From the sequence record NC_070992.1: a stretch of DNA of 64,000 nt, one strand, 5' to 3'. This DNA is from Escherichia phage Paul. Of the stretch, positions 50,236-51,579 are shown one piece after another. A program made the position numbers and the translations under genes. Numbering within the stretch: the stretch's first letter is position 1; each line of letters opens with the position of its first letter. The notes below the pieces were generated by a model that made no database searches, was not told the origin of the DNA, and saw only the letters and a program-made list of their open reading frames with translations.

Positions 50236-51579
50236 TTAACGAATGTTTTGTGAATTTAACAGATGGTCTAATTCCCCACCAACCTGAGGCTCTAATACTT
50301 CAGGGTTGTTGTCAACAAATCTATCAGCGAGATTGCGGCTGACGGTCTCAGCTAACTCACCATGAGAAGGGATATCAAGATCACCGACAGTGGGACTCTG
50401 AGCAGATGCTTCATCAGTCCATATAACACGAGCAGCTTGGTCAATACCACCAACAGCAAAACCCTGACCAGAGAACTGGTGACGGCTAGCAGTCAAACCA
50501 TTTGACAGACCACTAGAACGTCTAGACAACCACCGATCAAACGAATCGCTGGTAACACCAAGAGCCTCTTCAAAAGATGTTCTACGAGTAGGGCTTTCTC
50601 TTCGTAACTCTTGTGCTCGACGCATTGCAGGGGCTACAAAAACCCCTTCAATTGCATTATGTCGGTTAGGTTCTTCTTCCCGACCAAGTAAATCTCCACC
50701 TGTATTGGTTGTTAGGTTTGTCAACCCTTCAGACCAGTATGCTCTAATATGACCAGAACCATGAAGACTAGACATAATCTGAATCTCTTCATAAGGGATT
50801 CCAAAGAATCGACTCATGTCACGATTAACACAATACTGAGCACTTGTTGTATCCTCAATAAGAGCAACCTGACCTCGTTCGTTGACCAGATGATTAACTG
50901 GTTGAGGTGTGGGAAGATATCGAGTTTGGGCCATGTATTGATGTGCAGCTGCTGGAGAGGAAAACCTCAACACTTGCGAGTTAGGCCACTTCTTGTGAAC
51001 ATACCTGATTTCACGACTAGAAACAACCACTGGACAAGGGGCGGTCATAGCCAAATATCCGTGAGAAGTCATGAATAAGTTGTCAAGAGTCATCGCACCA
51101 CGGCACATCATAGGAAAATTATCCAATACCTCTTCAATAGAAGTAGGATAATTAAACATGAATTGGATACGAACCCCATTCCACTGAAACTCAATAATAT
51201 CAGTGAATGTTAATTGAGAACTCCCAGCATAGGATTCGTTTGTAGCTTCAGCAAGAAGGGATGAATATTCGATATCTTGTGACTCTAGCCATTCCTTCAC
51301 ATTACTTTCAATCTCTCTTCCAAGCATTTGCCACTGATCAGTTGGGACGAAAGTGTTTTGAGTTCTTGGTGTTTGTCCTCTGACAATAAAGATATCAATG
51401 TCATGTGGAGCTGTGTTGTTAAGGACAGCATCACGAATAGCCCCACCAGTAATGATGGGACAGATACCGTCTGGAATCAAGTTGTTGTTAATCAACTGTT
51501 CAATGAAGTGACGACCAACAGTGATATCAGGTTGTTGAGCAACCTTATCTTCAATTTGGTTAATCGGGATAACAATCAT
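50236..51579 (-). CDS. pol-beta superfamily nucleotidyltransferase, CCA-adding / poly(A) polymerase-like head domain
   Basis: ITGGAIRDAVLNNTAPHDIDIFIV matches the GGxVRD ... DxD motif; start set at ATG 51579 just after the exonuclease stop. Confidence 0.5.
   Translation of the reverse strand: MIVIPINQIEDKVAQQPDITVGRHFIEQLINNNLIPDGICPIITGGAIRDAVLNNTAPHDIDIFIVRGQTPRTQNTFVPTDQWQMLGREIESNVKEWLESQDIEYSSLLAEATNESYAGSSQLTFTDIIEFQWNGVRIQFMFNYPTSIEEVLDNFPMMCRGAMTLDNLFMTSHGYLAMTAPCPVVVSSREIRYVHKKWPNSQVLRFSSPAAAHQYMAQTRYLPTPQPVNHLVNERGQVALIEDTTSAQYCVNRDMSRFFGIPYEEIQIMSSLHGSGHIRAYWSEGLTNLTTNTGGDLLGREEEPNRHNAIEGVFVAPAMRRAQELRRESPTRRTSFEEALGVTSDSFDRWLSRRSSGLSNGLTASRHQFSGQGFAVGGIDQAARVIWTDEASAQSPTVGDLDIPSHGELAETVSRNLADRFVDNNPEVLEPQVGGELDHLLNSQNIR

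Follow-up and report, generated by a model that had tools for sequence, protein, structure and literature searches.

The DNA analysed here is a stretch of 64,000 nucleotides from Escherichia phage Paul (NC_070992.1), called the window in the following, and represents a Kuravirus (phiEco32/SU10-like) of the subfamily Gordonclarkvirinae, i.e. a member of the phiEco32-like prolate podoviruses. Its minus strand carries, at positions 50236–51579, a nucleotidyltransferase (NTase) gene within the replication module. Fold and family assignment make it very likely that the gene product is built around a class-II-type NTase core. As the best explanation we tentatively propose, with much more reservation than for the fold, that this core would add nucleotides, in phage replication, to the 3′ end of a nucleic acid other than tRNA; the substrate part of this explanation, i.e. 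the presumed acceptor, is doubtful. As judged from motifs and domain content, the protein is not a CCA-adding enzyme, and a CCA-repair label is unsupported. The gene is no new object: GenBank, for over 90 phages, and two papers already have it under the label 'CCA-enzyme-like nucleotidyltransferase', and the NTase observation as such has been made before (PMC4281155). The point of interest is a widespread, replisome-linked NTase that is core to a whole phage subfamily and appears to be a distant relative of the anti-Gabija protein Gad2.

The gene and the parts of its product that are needed for the argument are the following.
50236..51579, minus strand: complete NTase gene, 447 amino acids (aa) plus stop codon; orthologue of phiEco32 gp73 and SU10 gp74
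50875..51579, minus strand: conserved catalytic domain, residues 1–235; class II NTase head plus short neck remnant
51388..51447, minus strand: motif A, residues 45–64, GGAIRDAVLNNTAPHDIDIF; nucleoside triphosphate (NTP)-binding GG(x)RD helix and metal-binding D60/D62
51142..51174, minus strand: beta-strand VRIQFMFNYPT, residues 136–146; near-invariant Q139, and an IQxM motif common to minimal NTases and Gad2
51097..51117, minus strand: FPMMCRG, residues 155–161; position of class II motif B (RRDFTxNA), with RR absent and Asp replaced by Pro in the Kuravirus clade
50983..51015, minus strand: helix REIRYVHKKWP, residues 189–199; near-invariant R189 plus Y193, K196 and K197, at the position of motif D (EDxxR…RF), with E and D missing
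50680..50739, minus strand: conserved island, residues 281–300, YWSEGLTNLTTNTGGDLLGR (YWSEGL…); 98% identity within Kuravirus
50236..50679, minus strand: variable tail, residues 301–447; low-confidence, probably disordered, and compared codon by codon with SU10

The open reading frame (ORF) coordinates given by an earlier, sequence-only reading of this DNA and the two motifs on which it relied (GGxIRD and DIDIF) are real and beyond chance, the NTase being matched by phrog_12715 ('nucleotidyltransferase') with E 1e-239. The ORF extends upstream to a GTG (50236..51636, minus strand), and an in-frame ATG at 51579 gives the 447-aa product starting with MIVIPINQ…. The GTG start is disfavoured because it would overlap with the upstream gene and because all annotated orthologues start with MI(V/K)IP; the ATG agrees with the annotated starts in SU10, ECBP2, KBNP1711 and phiEco32. 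Megablast with positions 49600–53950 matches 98 phage records, with Escherichia phages Ptacy1479 (95.7%) and SU10 (94.3%) as the best ones. The orthologues phiEco32 gp73, annotated as 'hypothetical protein', and SU10 gp74 display 81–90% aa identity, belong to the same length class and occupy the same slot between the PolA exonuclease subunit and the dCTP deaminase; they differ allelically only, mostly in residues 301–447. A peptide of SU10 gp74 has been detected by mass spectrometry.

Motif A reads GGAIRD…HDIDIF, located at residues 45–64. In an alignment of 100 sequences G45, G46, R49, D50, D60 and D62 are invariant, and P58, F64, Q139, F155 and R189 are near-invariant. The sequence-only reading had named missing catalytic aspartates as the observation that would speak against it; the DxD pair is present in all 100 sequences. 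NTase catalysis is plausible because the six residues listed first are invariant among these relatives, and the Pol-beta/class II active site is, as far as can be read from the alignment, intact and under strong purifying selection. Across three genera and more distant relatives, conservation is limited to the first ~215–235 residues (31–39% identity). A catalytically dead scaffold with a structural role in the replisome could explain the loss of the motif-B Asp in the Kuravirus clade, and also the variation at residue 130, the place of the third acidic residue, which is not conserved (E/D/Q/N/S). However, GG, RD and DxD do not vary over 100 divergent sequences, as one would expect if the enzyme is active and kept so by purifying selection, and a dead scaffold appears extremely improbable.

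A model of residues 1–235 calculated with AlphaFold2 (AF2) from the 100-sequence alignment (domain only) reached a predicted local distance difference test (pLDDT) score of 90.3 and a predicted template modelling (pTM) score of 0.86. It replaced a full-length model based on a shallow alignment (mean pLDDT 52), the fold matches of which failed to tell CCA enzymes apart from TUT7, OAS1, TdT and cGAS. The top 41 PDB fold matches of the domain model (E<=1e-3) are all class II tRNA NTases (CCA-, CC- and A-adding) with template modelling (TM) scores of 0.35–0.51; E. coli PAP I comes next, and OAS1, TUT4, yeast PAP and TdT are weaker. At the level of sequence, a profile of 100 sequences including this NTase retrieved only class II CCA/poly(A) polymerases from the PDB (16 sequences, E 6e-8 to 4e-3), and these matches rest essentially on motif A. 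A profile of the six-sequence clade gave nothing significant against PDB sequences; broader profiles were needed. The claim of a Pol-beta NTase resembling CCA-adding enzymes and poly(A) polymerases is thereby borne out, with class II enzymes, rather than cGAS/DncV-like or MNT-like ones, as the closest relatives in structure and sequence.

Another type of Pol-beta enzyme would be a free-nucleotide synthase, making a cyclic or linear oligonucleotide decoy in the manner of the MNT-like Bcp1/Av05 NTases that jam STING, or in the manner of cGAS/DncV. Pol-beta enzymes are capable of such a reaction, there is precedent for phage NTases as anti-defence enzymes, and the MNT-like proteins share with the window NTase a phage origin, the Pol-beta superfamily and a similar size, with a counter-defence role via competitor cyclic dinucleotides being proposed for them. 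They represent a different clade, however, with a GS…SDxD active site (signature GS-x-AY[GAN]T-x4-SDxD, versus GGAxRD…HDIDIF here). The Pfam model NTP_transf_2 (PF01909) matches 0 of 26 close-family members, the window NTase among them, and 1 of 73 members of the minimal family described below. No cGAS/DncV-like structure is among the top 50 PDB fold matches of the pLDDT-90 model, and such (CD-NTase) structures were found only as weak matches to the poor full-length model. A decoy synthase is regarded as very improbable.

Class II tRNA NTases and bacterial PAP I (PF01743 head; PDB 1miv, 1ou5, 1vfg, 3h37, 3aql) share the head fold and motif A with the Kuravirus protein, and they are both the sole PDB families matched by the sequence profile and the best fold matches. 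Beyond the head, the similarity ends. Motif A does show the class II arrangement of GGxVRD followed by DxD. The Pfam PolyA_pol head (PF01743) reaches 19.3 bits over the full length and 20.7 bits for the domain, below the gathering cutoff of 23, and covers model positions 3–84 of 126. The ribose-recognizing RRD of motif B is absent: the aligned residues 153–156 are D-N-F-P, the clade consensus being FP and relatives having FD without RR. Alignments place FDWNVC here in minimal NTases and FDFTVCMG in Gad2. Class II motif B is defined in the established literature as RRDFTxNA. Motif D (EDxxR), the protein template for CTP/ATP, is absent as well; the region reads SSREIRYVHKKWP, in which only R189 is conserved, without a preceding E-D. 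Tail and helical body domains for tRNA binding were not found, residues ~240–447 being low in pLDDT and rich in indels and nonsynonymous changes, and the NCBIfam equivalog models for Cca/PcnB gave no match at E<=1. No tRNA or other Rfam RNA gene is present within the window (ARAGORN, Rfam). The sister phage SU10 has a single tRNA-Arg(UCU) gene (33700–33775, minus strand), beyond the window's range; it already ends with an encoded 3′ ACCA, so no de novo synthesis of CCA is needed. Two complete T7-like genomes carrying a related minimal NTase have no tRNA genes.

Genuine repair of tRNA 3′ ends (CCA), either against tRNA-targeting defences or in the service of a phage tRNA, had been among the functions suggested for this gene, and is also the reading found in GenBank. 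The best fold matches with CCA-, CC- and A-adding enzymes, a canonical motif A and the one tRNA-Arg(UCU) of SU10 are in line with it. Defences that cleave tRNA (e.g. Septu) are widespread. On the other hand, the absence of RRD, EDxxR and a neck, body and tail, together with scores below Pfam and NCBIfam thresholds, is the reason why the protein is judged not to be a CCA enzyme; moreover, the host already has Cca, the tRNA gene of SU10 encodes its own CCA, and the two T7-like genomes are devoid of tRNA genes. Taken with TM scores of only 0.35–0.51, this makes CCA repair decidedly unlikely, and the suggestion is not supported. Showing that the label is unsupported prevents mis-annotation, and directs attention to host nucleases and to the ends of DNA or RNA.

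A second function known from class II enzymes is RNA tailing of the poly(A)-polymerase type, by which host or phage transcripts or RNA primers would be marked for decay or processing, as a contribution to shut-off of the host or to the recycling of nucleotides. Significant matches by sequence and by fold include E. coli PAP I, loss of the base-templating motif D would suit a relaxed choice of nucleotides, and over-expressed relatives are cytotoxic. However, an RNA-binding domain is lacking (PAP I needs its C-terminal region), no gene of RNA decay is nearby, and the conserved partners are genes of DNA replication. We consider RNA tailing quite unlikely.

To define the relatives of this protein, an exhaustive HMMER search was run over 1.84 billion cluster representatives (E<=1e-3). 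It returned 130 clusters, nearly all of 160–480 aa; none of those examined resembled a canonical CCA enzyme of ~400 aa, and five clusters of 900–1500 aa were left uninspected. The hits fall into ~30 clusters of phiEco32-like proteins (270–480 aa), the more distant of which have 274–320 aa, and a wider set of single-domain proteins of 165–300 aa. A further search for homologues, by word index and starting from the clade alignment, added almost no new relatives. The phiEco32-like set and the minimal NTases align in hhalign with a probability of 99% (E 3e-18), phrog_1614 matches the window NTase with E 1.2e-7, and 68 of 73 members of the minimal family match the Pfam PolyA_pol head. Fold matches in BFVD are ORFs of 167–230 aa annotated as 'nucleotidyltransferase' or 'tRNA nucleotidyltransferase' in many Autographiviridae, including LKD16, phiNV3, LIMEzero, PP2, RSB3, Cd1, phiAS7 and Acinetobacter phage fBenAci002. 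The minimal phage NTases (167–250 aa; phrog_1614; DU_RP_I gp11, LKD16, LIMEzero, Cd1, 05F01 gene_142) have the same catalytic domain, with GGAxRD…DxDxF, the IQxM strand and the basic helix with R189, and also the same neighbourhood of primase/helicase and PolA. They differ in being single-domain proteins, whereas the Kuravirus protein (447 aa) adds a variable tail of ~210 aa, and in having FD at the motif-B position instead of FP.

Small NTase relatives adjoin replisome genes in many T7-like and rV5-like phages; the phage groups concerned are unrelated to each other and comprise Autographiviridae, rV5-like myoviruses and a Vibrio phage, as the following gene orders illustrate.
Ralstonia phage DU_RP_I: primase, NTase, PolA
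Bordetella phage BB8: primase/helicase, three small genes, NTase, one small gene, PolA
Caulobacter phage Cd1: NTase ~0.75 kb upstream of primase, helicase and PolA
Vibrio phage VP506: NTase ~1 kb upstream of primase/helicase and PolA
rV5-like Klebsiella phages FKP3 and 05F01: PolA, then NTase
P. putida phage Emajogi: gp22 NTase next to gp23 primase/helicase
A scan of IMG/VR with a degenerate DNA motif yielded 29 NTase loci. A T7-like primase/helicase or PolA was found in at least 13 of these, directly adjacent in 11; with short flanks and a narrow reference panel, these numbers are a lower bound on neighbours. The window NTase is assigned, by sequence similarity, to a phage-specific clade of 'minimal' NTases which travel with T7-type replication genes.

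In the window itself, the genes of the replication module are arranged as follows.
52132..53922, minus strand: primase/helicase, T7 gp4-like; first gene of a conserved four-gene block
51581..52138, minus strand: family-A DNA polymerase 3′-5′ exonuclease subunit, stand-alone, 185 aa; upstream of the NTase gene and adjoining primase/helicase
49690..50223, minus strand: dCTP deaminase; downstream of the NTase gene, its ATG 12 nt after the NTase stop
40401..42245, minus strand: family-A DNA polymerase, polymerase domain, 614 aa; ~9 kb from the exonuclease subunit in the same orientation; SU10 gp51
The TAA stop of the exonuclease gene lies 1 nt before the NTase ATG, i.e. the two genes are tightly coupled; scans for promoters and terminators around the NTase gene gave background levels. 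The order primase/helicase, exonuclease, NTase, dCTP deaminase was seen in three genera of Gordonclarkvirinae and is fixed in the whole subfamily, and a distant 88-kb relative has the same gene order with an NTase of 282 aa. The Gordonclarkvirinae locus has been described as 'fully syntenic' apart from homing endonucleases, with core status (PMC11990801). The NTase gene is a core gene of Gordonclarkvirinae, co-transcribed within the replication module, and the replication context assumed by the sequence-only reading is confirmed by its primase/helicase, PolA exonuclease and dCTP deaminase neighbours.

As an observation in its own right, family-A DNA polymerase is split in this genome into the exonuclease subunit (51581–52138, minus strand) and a separate polymerase-domain gene (40401–42245, minus strand). 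The idea that the split polymerase would consist of the 185-aa exonuclease plus the NTase was rejected, the true PolA polymerase domain being the one at 40401–42245.

The dCTP deaminase next to the NTase gene leads to a further explanation. Covalent modification of DNA by NTase and dCTP deaminase together, a speculation put forward by Humolli et al. (2025), would explain the strong resistance of Gordonclarkvirinae to restriction-modification (RM). In its favour, the NTase gene is core and co-transcribed with genes of nucleotide metabolism. However, dCTP deaminase, the thymidylate synthase ThyX, thioredoxin and a deoxynucleoside monophosphate (dNMP) kinase annotated in SU10 constitute an ordinary supply route for dTTP, and minimal relatives of the NTase occur without a deaminase neighbour. 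To our knowledge, no class II-type NTase modifies DNA bases, and the probability of this explanation appears small. The related idea of DNA containing dU was set aside, the ordinary dTTP pathway (ThyX, thioredoxin, SU10 dNMP kinase) being simpler.

Gad2 is an experimentally verified anti-Gabija protein of phage SPbetaL7, the sequence of which is given in the supplement of bioRxiv 10.1101/2023.05.01.538930. Knockout of Gad2 makes SPbetaL7 sensitive to Gabija, over-expressed Gad2 and Emajogi gp22 are toxic, and the literature searched, including PMC12904381, gives no mechanism for Gad2. In precomputed Pfam assignments, the family PF26128.2 is found on 120 of 120 listed Gad2 homologues, on most Kuravirus orthologues and on P0046; PADLOC has no match for the window NTase. 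The minimal family aligns with the N-terminal domain of Gad2 in hhalign with a probability of 97.8% (E 7e-13), the Kuravirus clade directly with 41–68% (E 5e-5 to 3e-4), and the aligned motifs are GG…DxD, the IQxM strand and F(D/P)xxC.G. No counterpart of the Gad2 C-terminal domain was detected in the Kuravirus NTase (hhalign probability 0.07%). Gad2 of SPbetaL7 (Brevibacillus laterosporus) resembles the window protein in the order of the motifs of an NTase domain that is probably a remote homologue, in being phage-specific and in PF26128.2; it differs by GGTITS in place of GGAIRD, i.e. it has no RD of motif A, and by a folded C-terminal domain of its own of ~200 aa. The Kuravirus domain is probably a distant homologue of the catalytic domain of Gad2, with a link that is strong only via the minimal family.

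Klebsiella phage 05F01 is informative with regard to this kinship. It has an NTase of 195 aa (3968–4555 of locus L050) 10 bp downstream of PolA and, separately, a Gad2-like gene of 460 aa (2968–4350 of locus L051) among small accessory genes. Since one phage carries both, we argue that two functionally distinct, non-redundant subfamilies exist, and the similarities argue for grouping the Kuravirus NTase with the replication-linked subfamily rather than with the Gad2 subfamily. A counter-defence function of the type of Gad2 from SPbeta-like Bacillus phages, by which the NTase would neutralise Gabija or another DNA-targeting defence of E. coli, could draw on the hhalign links and the shared PF26128.2, as well as on the knockout phenotype of Gad2, the fast-evolving C-terminal half and the toxicity of Gad2 and Emajogi gp22. 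Against this, the similarity is limited to the catalytic domain, the C-terminal domain of Gad2 is missing, Gad2 itself is without the RD of GGxxRD, both genes coexist in 05F01, and the Kuravirus gene is a core gene in a replication operon, not part of an accessory locus. Gabija does not occur among the defence systems tried on BASEL Kuraviruses (PMC11990801). On balance we regard this explanation as unlikely.

The C-terminal half of the Kuravirus protein evolves differently from the catalytic domain. Compared with SU10, residues 1–215 have 9 nonsynonymous and 9 synonymous-only codon differences; in residues 301–447 there are 48 nonsynonymous, 21 synonymous-only and 13 indel codons. In the full-length AF2 model, pLDDT is below 50–70 for residues ~240–447 and below 50 for residues 283–447, and no Pfam domain, RNA-binding ones included, was found in residues ~240–447. 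The sequence-only reading had described about 300 aa of partly low-complexity sequence after the head domain; the poorly ordered part is shorter, as the folded domain reaches residue ~235 and leaves ~210 aa. Inside this otherwise variable half, the W(S/T)xG(L/R) core of the island at residues 281–300 recurs across genera.

The ends of these proteins deserve a separate remark. Nine of 24 phiEco32-like NTase relatives (P0048, P0052, P0053, P0055, P0057, P0059, P0061, P0066, P0071) end in F, W or Y, where ~2.3 are expected (binomial p 2e-4, uncorrected for relatedness); the window NTase ends with …SQNIR, without a C-terminal aromatic residue. Aromatic ends are reminiscent of the C-terminal docking residues of T7 gp2.5 and gp4 and of those of SSB.

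We hypothesize the following mechanism for the window NTase. The protein would act as a stand-alone, catalytically competent class-II-type (CCA/poly(A)-polymerase-like) core, transferring a (deoxy)nucleoside monophosphate from the corresponding (d)NTP, without a template, onto a nucleic-acid 3′-OH, and not building the CCA of tRNA. The acceptor 3′-OH may be one that arises during phage DNA replication, at a primer, a nick or a genome end. Processing of such ends may help replicating phage DNA or RNA to escape host nucleases that sense ends, and the fast-evolving C-terminal half with its W-S-x-G-L island may tether the catalytic core to a partner protein. The benefit against nucleases is suggested only, because of the remote kinship with Gad2, the fast evolution of the tail and the toxicity of over-expressed relatives. 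The sequence-only reading had also offered the addition of nucleotides to another substrate; this is the option favoured by the evidence, with an acceptor that we infer.

Several points weigh against nucleotide addition to replication-derived 3′ ends. The literature search returned no assay for any member of the clade, and RNA, DNA, protein or none at all may be the acceptor. Gad2, the one relative that has been characterised by experiment, belongs to an accessory anti-defence locus and is not a replication gene. T7 replicates without such an NTase. The 29 IMG/VR loci amount to ~5 independent groups only, and since gene order is colinear among T7-like phages, adjacency of NTase and replisome genes is weaker evidence there. 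Finally, the motif-B Asp is kept in minimal NTases and Gad2 and is Pro in the Kuravirus clade; therefore, handling of sugar or nucleotide may differ even from the nearest relatives.

A more far-reaching possibility, to which we assign only a slight chance, is that NTases of replication modules, including this one, modify DNA or the ends of nucleic acids in a so far undescribed reaction coupled to replication. Genome ends, nicks or primers might be tailed without a template, for instance, or DNA might be nucleotidylated, and this would blind host nucleases that sense ends or read sequences. If true, such a modification would explain the pan-RM resistance of Gordonclarkvirinae and supply a mechanism for Gad2. 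The Kuraviruses of the BASEL collection, for which a K-12 derivative of E. coli with its O16 O-antigen restored serves as host, make tests of these ideas feasible now.

Further genes in the vicinity may be listed as minor observations. A thioredoxin gene (47391–47663, minus strand) adjoins ThyX (46513–47169, minus strand) in this genome with a T7-type replisome; host thioredoxin is the processivity factor of T7 DNA polymerase. Four paralogous ORFs of 65–69 aa, all on the minus strand (47185–47394, 48871–49080, 49080–49289 and 49289–49486), have 26–30% identity, with invariant W5, T27-R28, A31-R32, K35 and a C-terminal Y. Three of the four are in tandem directly downstream of dCTP deaminase, and they are 'hypothetical proteins' in relatives. 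A Dps/ferritin-like gene is located at 47913–48524 and is closely followed, on its downstream side, by the region's strongest terminator-like hairpin (47877–47905, minus strand; 11-bp stem, 7 GC pairs). Upstream of the replication block, positions 54142–63721 (minus strand) hold a gamma-glutamyl cyclotransferase of the GGACT type (Pfam E 6e-17), followed, by SU10 annotation, by an ATP-grasp/RimK-like protein, a glutamine amidotransferase, an amidoligase and a COOH-NH2 ligase. This cluster of peptide/amide ligases could bear on the reported RM resistance.

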